A stretch of 64,000 bases of DNA, from the sequence record NC_022968.1; one strand, 5' to 3'. Numbering within the stretch: position 1 is the stretch's first letter; every line of letters begins with the position of its first letter. A program made the translations under genes and the position numbers. The stretch is from Escherichia phage 4MG. Below the pieces are notes generated by a model, which saw only the letters and a program-made list of their open reading frames with translations, did not search any database and had not been told where the DNA came from. Positions 28,258-50,415 of this stretch are shown one piece after another.

Positions 28258-28266
28258 ATTGTTTGG

Positions 28267-28339
28267 TGGGACCGGGTGGACTCGAACCACCGACCATCTG
28301 CTCTTCAGGCAGGCACTCTACCAACTGAGTTACAATCCC
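28267..28339 (-). tRNA. tRNA-Phe (GAA)
   Basis: T-arm GGTGG/TTCGAGT/CCACC, anticodon loop CTGAAGA, A73, CCA encoded. Confidence 0.75.
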
Positions 28340-28349
28340 ATAAGATTGG

Positions 28350-28420
28350 TACTTCCTGGTAGAATCGAACTACCGCAACTGCCGTGTAAAGACAGGGTTC
28401 TACCATTAAACTAAGGAAGC
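28350..28420 (-). tRNA. tRNA-Val (TAC)
   Basis: T-loop TTCGATT, anticodon loop TTTACAC, CCA encoded. Confidence 0.7.
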
Positions 28421-28430
28421 ATTAAGGTGG

Positions 28431-28504
28431 TGGGCGACAGGGGACTCGAACCCCCAAAATTCGGAATCTAAATCCGACACGTATACCAATTCCATCAATC
28501 GCCC
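28431..28504 (-). tRNA. tRNA with Leu-type anticodon TAG but short (5 nt) variable arm
   Basis: 74 nt cloverleaf, anticodon stem TCGGA/TCCGA, loop TTTAGAT, A73, CCA encoded. Confidence 0.55.
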
Positions 28505-28616
28505 ATAAATGTTTGGAAGCCCATACTGTCTTCCTGATCAGCCAGAATCCTTTTCTAGCATTATCATCGGCCCTGTAGATCCTATCATTAGCCAGGGGAT
28601 CGACGCCTTAATTTGG

Positions 28617-28689
28617 TGGAGCCACTGAGAATCGAACTCAGTTCTACAAGGTGCAAGCCTGTGATTTTATCCAAATAAACTACAGCCCC
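28617..28689 (-). tRNA. tRNA-Ala (TGC)
   Basis: anticodon loop CTTGCAC; G3:U70 pair present; CCA encoded. Confidence 0.75.
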
Positions 28690-28696
28690 ATGTTGG

Positions 28697-28769
28697 TGCA
28701 AGTACAGGGATTCGAACCCCGATTCTCAGCTTCGTAAACTGATGCTCTGTCCAGTTGAACTATACCTGC
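28697..28769 (-). tRNA. tRNA-Arg (ACG)
   Basis: T-loop TTCGAAT, anticodon loop TTACGAA, CCA encoded. Confidence 0.7.
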
Positions 28770-28778
28770 TAAAATTGG

Positions 28779-28853
28779 TCGGAGCGGCAGGATTCGAACC
28801 TGCGACCCAGTGCATCCAAGGCACCCACGCTGACCAGACTGCGCTACGCTCCG
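28779..28853 (-). tRNA. tRNA-Pro (TGG)
   Basis: T-arm GCAGG/TTCGAAT/CCTGC, anticodon loop CTTGGAT, perfect acceptor pairing, CCA encoded. Confidence 0.75.
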
Positions 28854-29040
28854 AAGGTGCAGAATTTTAATTATCCCAGATACTGCAACTGGTATCGCTG
28901 GCTAGCTAATTTGATCCGCTCTGGTCACCTCGTGTGACATTGCAGACAGGCTAACCTATTCTGCAAGAGCGTATTGGGTTTGATACGTCGAACTCATTTT
29001 GAGTGCCTTCCGGCAATTTACATCAACATATCAAATTTGG

Positions 29041-29111
29041 CGGGAACTTCCTGACTCGAACAGGAGACAACCGCAGCACAAGCGGCCATTATGCCCCTTA
29101 ACTAAATTCCC
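29041..29111 (-). tRNA. tRNA with anticodon GTG (His-type) but G73 and C37, atypical
   Basis: T-arm TCCTG/actcgaa/CAGGA on plus strand, anticodon loop TTGTGCT, CCA encoded. Confidence 0.45.
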
Positions 29112-29118
29112 AATTTGG

Positions 29119-36144: not shown

Positions 36145-37827
36145 TTACAGTTGAGCGGCTGCTCGTTCACGAATCGTTGTCAGGTCTTCATCGACAATCA
36201 GTTTGCCGTTGTAGAACACACGACGCAGTTCGTTATCGTCAGACTGTACATCTTCAAGCTGACAATTGTCAATCAGTTCTAGCTGACCAAACATATTGCG
36301 AACAACCTTCAGGAAACCTTTTGCAGACTTCTTACCGAGGTCAGTCTTAGGTTCTTTGACAACCATGATCTGCTGACCATCAATAACCGCACCAGTTGCC
36401 TTCACAGCCATACCCAGTGAATCGCGGGTTGTGTACTGGGTAGTAAAGGAACCAACACCGTACACGATATTGCTGGATGCAAAGCCTTTATCTTTCAGAC
36501 GTTCAAAGATGTCTTTTGCACGAGCAACAGTGATAGAGTCACCGTAGATCAGGCCAACATGACTATCCAGAACTTTGTAACCCTTGGAGTTAACTTCACC
36601 ACCAAAGATTTCCCACAGACACTGGATTGCACCTTTGACTTCATGGTCTTGCAGATCGGAAGGCTCAAGATCAAGGTAATCCGTATCTTCATCGAATTCG
36701 ATGTTGTAATACTTACCTTTGACTGATACAACTTCACCTTTCTCGCTTTCCCATGCTGCGTCTTTGGCTTCAGACAGCGTTTCGAAATCACCAATATAAC
36801 GATACCCCGCAATGATATGTTCCGGAATGCCTGAATCAGGACGGAACACAACACGACCGTCACGAGCCATGATTTCTTCTTTCAGAATCAGTGCTGCACG
36901 GGTAATAATCGCCCAGAAGTCATAGCTGTCTGCTACGTAGGAAACAAAACCTTTCGGGAAAATTTCCGTGATGTAGCGTTTCAGGAATTCAACTTCAGCC
37001 AGGAAACGCAGTTCATCCAGGGACAAATCAGGATTTTCAGTTTTCAGGCGACCGACGATAAAGCCAATGTTAGTTGTTGCAACACTGTGTTCTGATGCAG
37101 GAATAGAACCAGCAACGAACTTACCTTTCATGTTGTAATAACGGTTCGCATACAGAATCGCAGGAATGGTATCTGTACCCATTGAGTTGATCAGTTGACC
37201 AAACTCACTCTGTGCCGCGTCGTGAGTACCAGATTCACCGCGATAAGCGAAGCAGTGGTTCTGGAACGGAACATGCAGGTTGTTATCACAAGTTTCGGCA
37301 GCGTATGCTTCAGACAGTTTGCGATACTGCCAGAAGGTAGTTGCAGTTGTGATGGTTTTCCATGTCTCTGCGGAGATCACGCTTTCCAGGAAGTTCGGCA
37401 ACCAGTAAAAATCAGGGTGCGTGTTCTGAATGGTGAACAGCGGAACCTGTACCGGGGACAGAGTGCCTTCAGGAATCGAACGGATTTCCAGTGGCAGGTA
37501 ACCAAGGTCATGCAGCTTTTCAAAGCCCCAGGTTTCAACCATGTCCGGGCCGATGCTCAGTTCACAAATTTCTTTGTACTGTGCGATAGCCGCTTTCTTT
37601 TTCATTTTGAAAAAGTTTTCGTTGAACAGGTCGATCAGGAACCATTTGATGAAACCTTGCAAGCCAGCCATCATCACACGCTGATCGTTATCAGCGAAGT
37701 GAATGAAGTGCTTTGCATTGCGTGGTGTCATGTTGTCCTGAACAATTTCAGAACGTCGGTCATACATGGAGATGTGTGAAGGTTTGTAAAAGTCAGCGAA
37801 TACGAGTGGGCTTTCTTTATGCAGCAT
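36145..37827 (-). CDS. nicotinamide phosphoribosyltransferase family protein (560 aa)
   Basis: NAMPT-like sequence features across ORF by recall; adjacent to PRS-like gene. Confidence 0.7.
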   Translation of the reverse strand: MLHKESPLVFADFYKPSHISMYDRRSEIVQDNMTPRNAKHFIHFADNDQRVMMAGLQGFIKWFLIDLFNENFFKMKKKAAIAQYKEICELSIGPDMVETWGFEKLHDLGYLPLEIRSIPEGTLSPVQVPLFTIQNTHPDFYWLPNFLESVISAETWKTITTATTFWQYRKLSEAYAAETCDNNLHVPFQNHCFAYRGESGTHDAAQSEFGQLINSMGTDTIPAILYANRYYNMKGKFVAGSIPASEHSVATTNIGFIVGRLKTENPDLSLDELRFLAEVEFLKRYITEIFPKGFVSYVADSYDFWAIITRAALILKEEIMARDGRVVFRPDSGIPEHIIAGYRYIGDFETLSEAKDAAWESEKGEVVSVKGKYYNIEFDEDTDYLDLEPSDLQDHEVKGAIQCLWEIFGGEVNSKGYKVLDSHVGLIYGDSITVARAKDIFERLKDKGFASSNIVYGVGSFTTQYTTRDSLGMAVKATGAVIDGQQIMVVKEPKTDLGKKSAKGFLKVVRNMFGQLELIDNCQLEDVQSDDNELRRVFYNGKLIVDEDLTTIRERAAAQL

Positions 37828-37880
37828 GTTTTGTTTCTCCTTTGTGTGTTTTGATGGGGTGATTCTACACCCCGTTTCGT

Positions 37881-38414
37881 TTAGATGTCAAGTGAAAAAT
37901 CTAAAGATTTAGATTCTTCTGTTACAACCGTTGTTTCTTTAACCAGACGACAGCCTTTCACCTTGATTTCTTTGGCTGGTGACCACTTAGTCGCACGGAT
38001 ATAGAATGTGTTTGCACGAATAACCATGAACCGGGCTACATCTTCAGGTGGTTCCTCGTTAATAAAAATCGCAACACTTTCGTATGCAGGCCACTTCATA
38101 GGGTTTTCATCGGTAACATCGGAATGTATACCATTACCGTTGTTAGTGCGACCCGGTGTAGGCCAGATAGTACAAGGTCGATAGCAGGCGTGGTCATCAG
38201 GAACCTGAATAACGTGATTTTCTAACCACGAGCAAATTTTTTCCAGGTCAAAATCATAATGGTCTTCTTTCAGGTCTTCAATATCTGTACGATATTCAGC
38301 CCCAACACCACACTCACCGATTTGCCCGGTAATATGAGCGCACATGTCACGCTCAAAGTTTCCTGCGTATGAGTCAGTATCGACAACAAAAATAAAACGA
38401 GTTGATTCAGTCAT
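37881..38414 (-). CDS. hypothetical protein (177 aa) between NAMPT-like and PRS-like genes
   Basis: ORF track; Cys/His-containing, no family recognised. Confidence 0.45.
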   Translation of the reverse strand: MTESTRFIFVVDTDSYAGNFERDMCAHITGQIGECGVGAEYRTDIEDLKEDHYDFDLEKICSWLENHVIQVPDDHACYRPCTIWPTPGRTNNGNGIHSDVTDENPMKWPAYESVAIFINEEPPEDVARFMVIRANTFYIRATKWSPAKEIKVKGCRLVKETTVVTEESKSLDFSLDI

Positions 38415-39214
38415 TAAAAATTCTCCGTCCAGTCATGGTATGCGTAGATTTCATCAACCCCGCCATCGAGGATGATTTGTTTCCCGAATGAGAAAATGCC
38501 GTGCGTAACGTAAAGGATAACACGTTTTGCACCATTCTCTTTCAGGGCTTTAGCCAGGGCGATGAAGGTACGACCACCATCACAGATATCATCGACGACA
38601 ACGCATTCGCGTCCTTCAACATCACCAAAGATTGCTGTCCCCGTAATTTCGTTTGTTTTCAGGTCACGAACCTTACCAGCTTCAACCAGAGGGAGTCGCA
38701 TACGGTCGGCAACCTTCTGTGCCTTCTTGCGAGCGCCTGCGTCTGGTGCAACAATGGTCACATCTTTCCCGGCAAGTTGATCATGGAATTCTGCAACAAG
38801 AATCTCTTGTCCACGAATCTGAACATTGTCCAGCAGTGCAGCAGAAACATCACTGTGTGGGTCATCAACAATCACTTTGTCGAAGCCAAGCGAGTTGACG
38901 AGGTTTGCAAAAACCTTGATAGATAGTGACTGTCCAGGTTGCATCACGCGATCCTGACGGGCATACGGGATGTATGGCAGGTGCAGGGTAAACTCAGCAT
39001 GGTTATGCAGCCCTTCAAGACGGGAACATGCATCCACCAACATAGCTAATGCCATGACATCGGTGGAGTTTTTGATTTTTGCAGTGATATCGACGAAACC
39101 AATACCGCCTTTTGGGGCATGTTTCAGATCAATCTCAACCTGTTCCTCACCACCCTTGAAGGTGAAGTGGTTAACAGGCACTTCCAGTTTGTTCAAGCGT
39201 AATTCAATACTCAT
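38414..39214 (-). CDS. ribose-phosphate pyrophosphokinase family protein (266 aa)
   Basis: PRPP-binding motif CVVVDDICDGGRT; shorter than typical bacterial Prs. Confidence 0.7.
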   Translation of the reverse strand: MSIELRLNKLEVPVNHFTFKGGEEQVEIDLKHAPKGGIGFVDITAKIKNSTDVMALAMLVDACSRLEGLHNHAEFTLHLPYIPYARQDRVMQPGQSLSIKVFANLVNSLGFDKVIVDDPHSDVSAALLDNVQIRGQEILVAEFHDQLAGKDVTIVAPDAGARKKAQKVADRMRLPLVEAGKVRDLKTNEITGTAIFGDVEGRECVVVDDICDGGRTFIALAKALKENGAKRVILYVTHGIFSFGKQIILDGGVDEIYAYHDWTENF

Positions 39215-39215
39215 T

Positions 39216-39533
39216 TTATTTCTCCTCTATCCAATCGTGAATTTCGTAAACCGTTTTGTTGTGGCCCATATTGGTGCGTGTTGTATCCTTTGTCAACCAT
39301 TTTATTTTCTCAAGGTTACCCACACACCGGGCAACAGTCGCCCTCGATAATCCTGTGGCATCAGCGATACTATCAAGTGACTCATGGTAAGTTTTCCGGA
39401 GAGACTTGAAGTAATGATACTGATGACGCATGTAGAGGTACACAATCTTGTCGTTGGACGAGGCGCAGGTCACCGACAGCAACTTCAGTTCGAAGTTACC
39501 GTAGATGTGCTTACCTGACGCGATGTACCCCAT
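39216..39533 (-). CDS. helix-turn-helix DNA-binding regulator (105 aa)
   Basis: HTH segment LDSIADATGLSRATVARCVGNLEKIKWL; first minus-strand gene next to divergent control region. Confidence 0.5.
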   Translation of the reverse strand: MGYIASGKHIYGNFELKLLSVTCASSNDKIVYLYMRHQYHYFKSLRKTYHESLDSIADATGLSRATVARCVGNLEKIKWLTKDTTRTNMGHNKTVYEIHDWIEEK

Positions 39534-40803: not shown

Positions 40804-41039
40804 GCAGACTTTCAAAGCTTCACAGACGAAAGAACATGCTGAAAGAAAAGCAGAAAAATATCACCGCAACTTTCCAAGTGTGCCGTGAAGCTATGAAGGC
40901 AAATCTGATAACGCCTTCACAGAGGCAGATTATCCGTGATATACTCCGGCCTGTGCTGCACGACCTGGAGGGCGAGGTTCGTGATGTTTTATGCCACATT
41001 CAAGAAGAACTTGAAAAATTAAATCAGGAGAATACATGA
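40800..41039 (+). CDS. hypothetical protein (79 aa)
   Basis: ATGA overlap with upstream gene. Confidence 0.4.
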   Translation: MSRLSKLHRRKNMLKEKQKNITATFQVCREAMKANLITPSQRQIIRDILRPVLHDLEGEVRDVLCHIQEELEKLNQENT

Positions 41040-41629
41040 TCGACCACGTTACATCAGACACGCATTGGTGGCACACCAATATTCTGGGTTTTCCCTCGTG
41101 TGATAAATTCCGGAAAAACCTGTACGGTCCAAAGGAAGTCCGTGAAAGTCTGTATGCCATGAATGCTGGCATGATTGAAATCTGGAATAAGCACGTCAAA
41201 CCAGATGATGTCGTAGCACACCTCGGTGATTTCGTGATTGCTTACGGACGCTACATGGAGCCTCGCGTTCGTGACATCTTGGAAAAGATCAACGGAAAGA
41301 TCATTCTGGTTGGTGGAAACCATGACAACCGAGATACGAAACGTATCTTCCGTGAGTTTGGTCACGAAGTTGTTGATTATAAAGAGATTAACTTCAGCAC
41401 TGGAAAAGAGAAGGTGCATGTGTGTATGTCTCACTATCCGTTTGCATCGTGGAATAAAGCTCACCACGGGTCAGTTATGCTGCACGGTCATAGCCACGGC
41501 TCCTATACAGCCCCTGGTGGACGTATTCTGGATGTGGGTTGGGATGTACATGGTCGTCCTCTGACGATGCGTGAAGCCGTCCTGATGTGCCTTGAAAAAC
41601 CAATTTACACTGCTGATCACGGAGAATAA
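41036..41629 (+). CDS. calcineurin-like metallophosphoesterase (197 aa)
   Basis: motifs HLGDF, GGNHD, HGHSH typical of Ser/Thr phosphatase-type phosphoesterases. Confidence 0.65.
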   Translation: MIDHVTSDTHWWHTNILGFPSCDKFRKNLYGPKEVRESLYAMNAGMIEIWNKHVKPDDVVAHLGDFVIAYGRYMEPRVRDILEKINGKIILVGGNHDNRDTKRIFREFGHEVVDYKEINFSTGKEKVHVCMSHYPFASWNKAHHGSVMLHGHSHGSYTAPGGRILDVGWDVHGRPLTMREAVLMCLEKPIYTADHGE

Positions 41630-41987: not shown

Positions 41988-42187
41988 AAATTCACAACAT
42001 AACCAAGGACAGGATTCATTTCATAATGGATTCAGGGGCTTACGGTTCAATTTCAAAGGTGGATGCCATGAAGTTTCTGTATGCTTCAAATATTCCTCAG
42101 GCAAAGCTTGACTCCCGTTCAGGAGAGTGTATTATTGACTCTATTACGAATACACAAGAACTGTGGGAGATATATCATGAAATTTAA
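41984..42187 (+). CDS. hypothetical protein (67 aa)
   Basis: ATGA overlap. Confidence 0.35.
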   Translation: MKIHNITKDRIHFIMDSGAYGSISKVDAMKFLYASNIPQAKLDSRSGECIIDSITNTQELWEIYHEI

Positions 42188-43097
42188 CGTAGATGATCTG
42201 GTTGCTAAAAAGCTGGTAACCAAAAAGACTTACACCGAAGGCCCGTTCGCGGGTCTGTCTGTACTGAAATATAAGAACAATGTGTTCTGGGATAACCTGT
42301 GGCACACAGATGCGCGTCTGCTTGAGTGCCGTGGCATGGTTGTTGATGCAGAGGACAACGTTGTTATCTGGCCTTTCACGAAGATTTTCAATCGCTTCGA
42401 GAACAACACTGATGTCCCACAGGACAAGTTGGTGTGCGTACCTCGTAAAGTCAATGGCTTTATGGCAGCAATGAGTGTTTACAATGGTGAAGTAATTGTG
42501 TCTACCACAGGAACACTTGATTCTGAGTTTGCACAAATGGCAAAAGATAAGATCACTGGTTCCATGCCTGAAGGGATGCTTGACTATTTCGTGAAGAATG
42601 CTGGACCTTGCACACTTATCTTTGAAATATGTGATGAGAGTGATCCCCACATTGTCGCAGAAGAAGCGGGTGCTTATCTGATTGGTTGCCGGGTCCACTT
42701 AAGTGGTGGTATGCTTCCAGAGTGGGACCTTGATAGAGTTGCAAATCGTTATGGTTGGAAACGTGCTGACTGGGACAACATGATCTTCAGCGATGTTGTT
42801 AAGGCTTCCAAGTCAGTTAATCATGAAGGTTTTGTTGTTCGTGATGTTGACACCAATGAGCTACTGCTGAAAATTAAGTCTCCACATTACCTGGCGAAGA
42901 AGTTCCTGATGCGTGGTAGCCAGAACAAGTGGGACCTGATTTGGGACAACCCGAAAGAAGCCAAAAAACGTATCGACGAAGAGTTCTACGAACTTCTTGA
43001 CTGGCTGCGCTGGGCTTACGAAAAAGATGAGTGGGCGGCTAAGGACTCTCAGTATCGTCGTATGATTATTGAAAAATATTTTGAGGATCGCAAATGA
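42177..43097 (+). CDS. ATP-dependent ligase-like nucleotidyltransferase, putative RNA ligase (306 aa)
   Basis: covalent nucleotidyltransferase motifs I KVNG, IV EGFVVR, V LLKIK; start ATG 42177 within ORF 42081..43097. Confidence 0.5.
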   Translation: MKFNVDDLVAKKLVTKKTYTEGPFAGLSVLKYKNNVFWDNLWHTDARLLECRGMVVDAEDNVVIWPFTKIFNRFENNTDVPQDKLVCVPRKVNGFMAAMSVYNGEVIVSTTGTLDSEFAQMAKDKITGSMPEGMLDYFVKNAGPCTLIFEICDESDPHIVAEEAGAYLIGCRVHLSGGMLPEWDLDRVANRYGWKRADWDNMIFSDVVKASKSVNHEGFVVRDVDTNELLLKIKSPHYLAKKFLMRGSQNKWDLIWDNPKEAKKRIDEEFYELLDWLRWAYEKDEWAAKDSQYRRMIIEKYFEDRK

Positions 43098-49908: not shown

Positions 49909-50415
49909 ATGAGAGTAACTGATCAGCATGTTTTCTTCTTCACTTATCGTGATATGTTCAGCAACCACTTTCGACAGATAATTCCTATTCGTTGTGGTGG
50001 CTATGAGTTCTTCACGGTGGAGCACTTTATGATGTTCCAAAAAGCAATGCTCTTTGATGACAAAGAGATTGCTGCACGTATTGCCACAGTTGATAATCCA
50101 AACGAGGCAAAAGCGCTGGGTCGTAAAGTCAGGGACTTTGACAACAGTGTTTGGGAAGAAAACAGAATGGACATTGTAACAAACGGTCTTGTTCTGAAAA
50201 TGAAGGCTAACCGCTCTATTCTGGAGTCTGCACTGACTCACAGAGATGCTGGGCGGCGATTTGTAGAGGCATCCCCGTATGATGCAATCTGGGGTGTAAA
50301 ACTGAATGAATATGATCCACGCATTGATGATCCTGCTAACTGGCAAGGTCTTAATCTTCTCGGTGAGTGCTGGGAAAGAGCAATTGATGTTGTGATCGCA
50401 GCTTCGTGGAGGTGA
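49909..50415 (+). CDS. NADAR-domain protein (YbiA-like, DUF1768) (168 aa)
   Basis: N-terminal FFFTYRDMFSNHF, EHFMMFQKAML, later WGVKLNEY block characteristic of YbiA/NADAR family by recall. Confidence 0.6.
   Translation: MRVTDQHVFFFTYRDMFSNHFRQIIPIRCGGYEFFTVEHFMMFQKAMLFDDKEIAARIATVDNPNEAKALGRKVRDFDNSVWEENRMDIVTNGLVLKMKANRSILESALTHRDAGRRFVEASPYDAIWGVKLNEYDPRIDDPANWQGLNLLGECWERAIDVVIAASWR

Follow-up and report, generated by a model that had tools for sequence, protein, structure and literature searches.

Three neighbouring genes on the minus strand of Escherichia phage 4MG were analysed within a stretch of 64,000 nucleotides (record NC_022968.1), hereafter called the window. An initial annotation of this DNA, made from its letters and a list of open reading frames, had described minus-strand frames of 560, 177 and 266 amino acids at the locus, and all three were recovered with exactly those sizes and positions. 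They are read as real genes, not chance open reading frames:

36145–37827, minus strand: namat, 560 amino acids, Nampt-like, predicted nicotinamide ADP-ribose transferase (profile matches, similarity to Namat, and a motif).
37881–38414, minus strand: orf177, 177 amino acids, uncharacterised, the open reading frame between adps and namat (PHROG 23621).
38414–39214, minus strand: adps, 266 amino acids, Prs-like, predicted ADP-ribose pyrophosphate synthetase (Prs-type domains, Adps clade).

The stop codon of adps overlaps the start codon of orf177 in the sequence TAATG, and 53 nt lie between orf177 and namat. All three share one strand and are joined by overlapping or short spacers, which is the packing of an operon. 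Set against the criterion of a Namat homologue within ten genes, namat stands two genes downstream of adps on the same strand, 587 nt away. The start of this leftward transcription unit is marked by a divergent intergenic region and a switch in GC skew near 40 kb. Over 24 kb the window shares 89–90% nucleotide identity with Cronobacter phage GAP31, Enterobacter phage EC152 and Escherichia phage LNA4, and the phage is classed as a GAP31-like Seunavirus, a myovirus of the Vequintavirinae.

The predicted Adps and Namat enzymes

The adps and namat genes are best explained as the Adps and Namat of the NAD+ reconstitution pathway NARP1, with orf177 a lineage-specific insertion in the spacer between them; the probability of this reading is put at about 0.88. 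NARP1 was described in 2024 (Osterman et al. 2024, bioRxiv 10.1101/2024.02.11.579819), with structures reported in PMC12774641 and PMC13586617. Its chemistry has been demonstrated in vivo for Escherichia phage Bas63 (JohannRWettstein), and in vitro and structurally for the enzymes of Bacillus phage SPbetaL1 and Vibrio phage ICP1; the pathway overcomes SIR2-HerA, DSR1/2, Thoeris and SEFIR. Genes of the Adps clade have an adjacent Namat in 97% of cases, which is rare for bacterial prs genes. For the 4MG pair, we infer NARP1 from the clade placement, from the conservation of residues for catalysis and specificity, and from the arrangement as an operon.

The Namat orthologues of GAP31, PVP-SE1 and SSE121 are tagged 'Adps-associated' in the Osterman tables, where the Prs/Adps homologues of the same phages are listed with a Namat nearby ('Namat within 10 genes: Yes' for GAP31). 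Table S1 also holds ordinary bacterial Prs, so a listing alone is no clade call, and a separate tree was therefore built. It was a neighbour-joining tree with Poisson correction, covering 18 sequences and 267 columns with 500 bootstraps; the references were the Adps of Bas63, SPbetaL1, FADO and ICP1 (gp228), bacterial Prs from the Osterman table, and E. coli K-12 Prs. The phage proteins were split from the bacterial Prs with 99.8% bootstrap support, and the window protein grouped with Bas63 and ICP1 in a clade of Gram-negative phage Adps, also at 99.8%.

Profile scores were in keeping with this placement. The 266-residue protein matched Pribosyltran_N, Pribosyltran and Pribosyl_synth above the Pfam cut-offs, as well as PHROG 619, and scored 163.5 bits against TIGR01251 (NCBIfam cut-off 113), but it fell well under every NCBIfam equivalog cut-off for Prs (for example, 143.9 against 297 bits). 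It is 40–41% identical to the Adps of Bas63 and JohannJBalmer, 38% to that of ICP1 and 33% to E. coli Prs. The shortness that the initial annotation had flagged as unexplained finds its explanation here, since validated Adps proteins are 272–293 residues long and E. coli Prs is 315. Bas63 itself was rejected as a close relative of the window phage, their proteins being only about 40% identical; the Bas63 Namat matches the Namats of VpaE1 and the O157 typing phages.

ICP1 gp228 was taken to be the solved Adps because all 19 residues named in PMC13586617 fit its numbering. Two sites in the window protein correspond to residues with published roles:

38672–38674, minus strand: Adps catalytic lysine K181, aligned with ICP1 K185 and SPbetaL1 K162 (codon checked).
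38564–38593, minus strand: distal-ribose contacts and pyrophosphate (PP) loop DDICDGGRTF of Adps, D208–F217 (role from PMC13586617).

Substitution of this beta-hairpin lysine, K185 in ICP1 or K162 in SPbetaL1, abolishes Adps activity. The PP loop is the same in Bas63; it reads DDICDGAASF in ICP1 and DDMIDTGGTL in the canonical Prs of E. coli. Twelve of the 20 mapped ICP1 positions, comprising ADP-ribose (ADPR) and ATP contacts and the PP loop, are identical in the window protein, where F19, R86, H120, D158, D208, D209, I210, C211 and D212 coincide with residues that contact ADPR and ATP in the solved enzyme. The departures from ICP1 (M91, T191, T193, G214, R215, T216 and A219) are mostly as in Bas63 or JohannJBalmer. 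Assignment against Prs and Adps sets and inspection of the substrate residues had both been suggested in the initial annotation; both pointed to Adps, and the 266-residue protein is predicted to act on ADP-ribose rather than on ribose-5-phosphate.

The 560-residue protein matched Pfam NAPRTase (1.6e-27) and PHROG 448, 'nicotinamide phosphoribosyl transferase' (6e-194). In a phmmer search of the PDB it scored 418.6 bits against the SPbetaL1 Namat (9W5X/9W5W), compared with 183.6 for the Xanthomonas Nampt and about 161 for human NAMPT. The following features were located in it:

36421–36453, minus strand: selectivity-clamp helix motif GSFTTQYTTRD of Namat, G459–D469, with F461 and Y465 at the adenine-stacking positions.
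36841–36843, minus strand: Namat R329, equivalent to SPbetaL1 R306 (aligned in the conserved RPDSG motif).
36640–36804, minus strand: insertion of about 55 residues (342–396) relative to the SPbetaL1 Namat, just after RPDSG..IIAG.

The published Namat-specific consensus for the clamp helix is GS-X-phi-X-phi-X-phi-TRD, with aromatics at positions 3 and 7. Among the loci of this analysis the motif was present in five of five NARP1-linked enzymes and in neither of two NatV-linked Nampts. H191 (in FQNH) and R329 (in RPDSG), both of the catalytic core, align with SPbetaL1 Namat residues, and an R306G substitution inactivates the SPbetaL1 enzyme. For the selectivity-clamp loop between beta1 and beta2, the expected pattern is Arg, Lys or Tyr in third place together with a stacking residue; a candidate segment placed by eye from a pairwise alignment, TPR-NAKHF (34–41), would put lysine third, followed by histidine and phenylalanine, and the Bas63 pattern is SDKW. 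Bas63 Namat likewise has extra sequence at the point of the 342–396 insertion. The margin in score over the Nampts and the presence of the clamp motif, which answer the corresponding NadV-or-Namat comparison, indicate that the 560-residue protein is a predicted Namat using ADP-ribose pyrophosphate (ADPR-PP).

As a separate observation, in the Vibrio phage ICP1 isolate 2017_Dha_AB (locus L062, 4988–6307) the solved Adps is followed by a 439-residue gene annotated as hypothetical, and a regular-expression search of that gene did not find the selectivity-clamp helix motif.

Compared with the NARP1 systems of Bas63, SPbetaL1 and ICP1, the window pair has the same two enzyme families in the same order and strand arrangement, the catalytic lysine and the Namat adenine-clamp motif, and it shares the PP loop of Bas63. 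It differs in being interrupted by a 177-residue gene, in its Adps sequence (40% identity to Bas63, 38% to ICP1) and in the additional Namat residues relative to SPbetaL1. In the proposed mechanism, host defence by SIR2-HerA, DSR1/2, type I Thoeris or SEFIR would cleave NAD+ to ADPR and nicotinamide. Adps would move the beta,gamma-pyrophosphate of ATP onto the 1'' hydroxyl of ADPR to give ADPR-PP and AMP, and Namat would swap the pyrophosphate of ADPR-PP for nicotinamide. Since NAD+ would be regenerated directly in this last step, no nicotinamide mononucleotide (NMN) adenylyltransferase (NMNAT) would be needed.

Classical salvage and other NAD genes of the lineage

Several points weigh against NARP1. 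The tree is small, built by a distance method from 18 sequences, and most of the canonical Prs in it are actinobacterial. The ICP1 contact to the ADPR adenine, F92, is replaced by methionine in the window Adps, as it is in Bas63, and three PP-loop positions differ from ICP1. The 560-residue protein passes the NCBIfam equivalog NF006629, 'nicotinate phosphoribosyltransferase' (475.7 against 405 bits), from which it follows that Namat and Nampt are still lumped together by curated models. Namat enzymes also form NMN from phosphoribosyl pyrophosphate (PRPP) in vitro, and a NadR-like NMNAT in GAP31 allows, on gene content alone, a contribution from a classical route.

The last three of these points also favour the other route named in the initial annotation. 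In this classical salvage the 266-residue protein would be a PRPP synthetase, the 560-residue protein would produce NMN as a Nampt/NadV, and the synthesis would be finished by a NadR-like NMNAT from another part of the genome or by the host NadR or NadD. The Pfam, PHROG and GenBank annotations read this way, and GAP31 carries PnuC as well as the NadR-like protein. We nevertheless consider this route very improbable. The 266-residue protein falls in the Adps clade and misses all of the equivalog Prs cut-offs, and the 560-residue protein carries the Namat-specific adenine clamp that is missing from NatV-linked Nampts. In published work, purified SPbetaL1 Adps gave no product in a ribose-5-phosphate assay (Fig. 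2D legend), and the loss of both pncC and nadR in a double mutant did not keep Bas63 from overcoming defence. The NadR-like gene of GAP31, moreover, sits with PnuC as a separate module of NARP3 type, which uses imported nicotinamide riboside. Between the two routes of the initial annotation, the Adps tree, K181, the PP loop and the clamp motif thus support the two-enzyme route through ADPR-PP.

The absence of an NMNAT, also part of the initial annotation, held for the window but probably does not hold for the genome. Queries with a NadR-like NMNAT, a NatV-type NMNAT-Nudix and PnuC gave no match in the 64-kb window at E<=1e-3 (tblastn). In the relative GAP31 (NC_019400.1), however, GAP31_248 (134813–135886) is a NadR-like NMNAT/kinase with CTP_transf_like and AAA_28 domains and GAP31_243 (132818–133525) is a PnuC transporter. 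The two are separated by four genes and lie about 52 kb from the NARP1 operon, beyond the span of the window; the window phage probably has this pair too. The initial annotation had named two observations that together would refute its candidate NAD+ reconstitution module, an NMNAT elsewhere in the genome and retention of all canonical Prs and NadV substrate residues. The former was found only in the relative GAP31 and the latter was not found, so the classical reading stays unlikely.

The PnuC and NadR-like pair of GAP31 is the gene content of NARP3 (described for Bas30; PMC13464706), present there alongside NARP1; both genes are missing from the window. A search by term found no mention of co-occurrence of NARP1 and NARP3 in PMC13464706. 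The NARP2 pathway of Vibrio phage KVP40 pairs Nampt with the NMNAT-Nudix NatV. No NatV is annotated in GAP31, no NatV-like sequence was found in the window, and the Nampt-like enzyme of the window, unlike that of NARP2, carries the Namat clamp. What the window pair would have in common with NARP2 and NARP3 is the restoration of NAD+ by a phage against NAD+-depleting defence. A further ADP-ribose-related function is encoded about 11 kb from NARP1 by a NADAR-domain gene (window 49909–50412, plus strand), which shares 95% identity with GAP31_157 (the GAP31 protein scores 119 bits against Pfam NADAR).

The gene between adps and namat

PVP-SE1 and Ro1 have a plain adps-namat operon with a spacer of 61–67 nt. 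Compared with both, orf177 is a clean indel: it begins at the stop codon of Adps and ends shortly before a shared promoter-like motif, ribosome-binding site and ATG. The TTGACA element, the ribosome-binding site AAGGAGAAAC and the namat ATG are kept in these two phages, both of which lack orf177. Two features belong to this region:

37862–37891, minus strand: candidate sigma-70-like promoter motif upstream of namat, TTGACA-18-TAGAAT, matching 11 of 12 consensus positions (consensus scan).
38349–38381, minus strand: orf177 family signature DTDSYAGNFER, residues 12–22 (alignment of 61 homologues; G18, N19 and F20 invariant).

The only database match of orf177 was to PHROG 23621, labelled 'unknown function'; it had no match in Pfam or NCBIfam. 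Its AlphaFold2 model, with a predicted local distance difference test (pLDDT) score of 95.3, is a mixed alpha/beta fold with the signature where strand 1 meets helix 1. Structural matches were to generic ferredoxin-like domains, with no specific structural relative. Among longer or fused members of the family, DUF6575 and sub-threshold matches were the only hints of function.

Two precedents for an additional gene at NARP1 were compared with orf177. In NARP1-AP of Vibrio phage Gary the operon is Adps-Adpp-Namat, likewise with three genes and the extra one in the middle; thanks to this gene, a wider set of NAD+ breakdown products becomes available for recycling (Osterman et al. 2026, bioRxiv 10.64898/2026.01.28.702374). 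RyDEP, an RyR-domain glycosidase beside NARP1 in mycobacteriophage DyoEdafos, yields ADPR for NARP1 (bioRxiv 10.64898/2026.05.28.727677) and is similar in being a small accessory gene next to the pathway. Neither identity fits orf177. A Macro/Adpp identity was rejected (hhalign probability 0.1% against Adpp, no Macro Pfam match), and the window operon thus differs from NARP1-AP in having no Macro-domain ADPR-1''-phosphate phosphatase. An RyR/RyDEP identity was also rejected: RyDEP is of the RyR Repeat12 type, and orf177 had no RyR Pfam match and only the generic ferredoxin-like structural matches.

The orf177 family comprises 1,763 clusters at 50% identity, and 456 metagenomic relatives were found. 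Among cultured phages there are 14 records with a homologue; ten of them are of Seunavirus type, and in all ten the gene lies inside NARP1. Neighbourhoods were sampled at 152 loci (126 clusters at 90% identity, 75 of them usable). NAD-reconstitution genes occurred within 6 kb of the homologue in 9 of the 75 usable clusters. For a control family of unrelated accessory genes, PTH2 (80 loci), the corresponding figure was 5 of 55. PTH2 neighbours orf177 in four loci, so that it controls for a similar region and is not fully independent; the NAD query set was drawn partly from orf177 loci, and any bias from this favours orf177. The excess for orf177 (8/49 or 9/75) over PTH2 (5/55) was not significant (Fisher p 0.21–0.41), and an enrichment of orf177 homologues within 6 kb of NARP genes, considered earlier, was withdrawn after this control. 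Five orf177 clusters had the homologue within 250 nt of an NAD gene on the same strand; none of the PTH2 clusters did, the nearest case there being at 2.5 kb (p = 0.15). With that p value at these numbers, a NARP-accessory role can be offered only as a hypothesis, and an unrelated accessory gene is more likely.

Direct neighbours were nevertheless of three NAD-synthesis kinds in distant lineages. A homologue follows Adps directly at L090, stands directly after PnuC and a NadR-like gene at L027, and comes after MazG and NMNAT at L054. At L048 (900–7852; IMG/VR UViG_3300033984_000473, a 233 kb phage contig) a homologue lies inside an island of genes on one strand: NMNAT-Nudix, a glutamate-synthase-like gene, Nampt, a 201-residue gene, then the homologue itself, NADAR, a nucleoside-deoxyribosyltransferase-like gene and Macro. 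A Prs/Adps-like gene is found 5 kb beyond this NAD/ADP-ribose island. At L044 a homologue lies 1.8 kb upstream of an operon of Adps, an Adpp-like gene and Namat.

These observations bear on two readings of orf177. In the first, orf177 would be an unrelated accessory gene or moron, for example an anti-defence or host-takeover factor with another target, that sits in a permissive spacer and is merely co-transcribed. This is the reading we favour, with some reserve. The insertion is cassette-like, a clean indel with a patchy distribution within the Vequintavirinae; the family is found mostly in unrelated contexts of large environmental phages, for example beside saccharopine-dehydrogenase-like and PTH2 genes; and the PTH2 background control indicates that accessory regions of this kind often hold NAD genes in any case. 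What counts against it is that, in distant lineages, family members repeatedly lie directly beside three different NAD-synthesis enzymes.

In the second reading, orf177 would extend NARP1 as a helper comparable to Adpp or RyDEP, converting or capturing an NAD+-derived product or signal, feeding ADPR or nicotinamide to the pathway, or protecting the NAD+ pool. It is tentatively kept as the less probable of the two. In its favour, orf177 sits exactly in the Adps-Namat spacer with the geometry of translational coupling, in the position that Adpp holds in its operon. The ten cultured-phage records inside NARP1, the direct adjacencies and the L048 island, and the lack of any direct adjacency in the PTH2 control also count for it. 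So does the invariant YAGNFER at the strand-1/helix-1 junction, a site where, by our own inference, ligands are frequently bound in ferredoxin-like folds. Against it, an NAD gene within 6 kb is missing for about 88–90% of the family, the PTH2 rate at that distance is similar, and the adjacency excess is not significant. PVP-SE1, Ro1, Bas63 and SPbetaL1 manage without orf177, of about 1,575 phage records with an Adps only 10 have the gene, and no catalytic or binding fold could be assigned to it. Taken together, orf177 was most likely acquired independently as an accessory gene, and a role as a NARP-linked helper is the less likely alternative.

Extended to the whole family, the second reading would make it a new accessory of phage NAD+ counter-defence, recruited repeatedly beside genes of NARP1, NARP2 type and NARP3 type; this is conceivable but doubtful. 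Since the NARP pathways share only NAD+, the target of such an accessory would be expected to be shared by all of them, for instance an NADase effector, a signal derived from NAD+, or a breakdown product beyond the reach of the known pathways.

Homologues were also met outside phage records. A homologue of 38% identity lies on a 1,563,871 bp contig labelled as a Candidatus Woesearchaeota metagenome-assembled genome (L084/L147), and 12 of 12 matches in genome collections were to metagenome-assembled genomes of candidate-phyla-radiation bacteria, DPANN-type archaea or similar bins. Phage contigs placed in the wrong bin could account for these copies, or they could be genuinely cellular.

The gene preceding adps is a second point of variation in the operon:

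39216–39533, minus strand: winged-helix gene, 105 amino acids, 1-nt gap upstream of adps (HTH_IclR match above cut-off).

It is probably the first gene of the adps-namat transcription unit. Its product matches PHROG 8102 (the N-terminal part of a replication-initiation protein) and has a sub-threshold Pfam match to wHTH-PRTase_assc (21.3 against 27 bits). GAP31 has a counterpart, GAP31_179, and other genes stand at this place in PVP-SE1 and Ro1. As both the winged-helix gene and orf177 differ, the GAP31-type operon departs from the PVP-SE1 type at two places.

Other genes near the operon were noted in passing. A calcineurin-like metallophosphoesterase is encoded at window 41036–41629 on the plus strand (Pfam Metallophos, 2.7e-06), and its homologues are the most recurrent neighbour of the orf177 family (seven IMG/VR loci, some non-Seunavirus). 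An RNA ligase 1-like gene lies at 42081–43097 on the plus strand, and genes of RNA-ligase families recur near orf177 homologues (L001, L002 and L021). On the other side, 25 tRNA genes are clustered at 28264–34878 on the minus strand; one aberrant call with a two-base anticodon (30264–30333) corresponds to a GAP31 tRNA-OTHER feature flagged as a pseudogene.

Significance for phage NAD+ counter-defence

The predicted Adps and Namat pair adds no new biology at its core: NARP1 has been known since 2024, both of its enzymes have been solved, and the closest orthologues are tabulated. It does call for a correction of annotation, as GenBank and PHROGs still name the two proteins PRPP synthetase and nicotinamide phosphoribosyltransferase. 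Seunavirus-type phages are also seen to carry NARP1 together with a NARP3-type PnuC/NadR pair and NADAR, which would amount to a multi-layered counter-defence kit for NAD and ADP-ribose. Adpp and RyDEP were two earlier extra genes at NARP1, and each exposed new host defence chemistry. The orf177 product, which is compact, confidently foldable, widespread in metagenomes and uncharacterised, is a lead of modest value. If its family is truly linked to NAD, orf177 would be the first representative, among cultured phages, of a large family that has no annotation.

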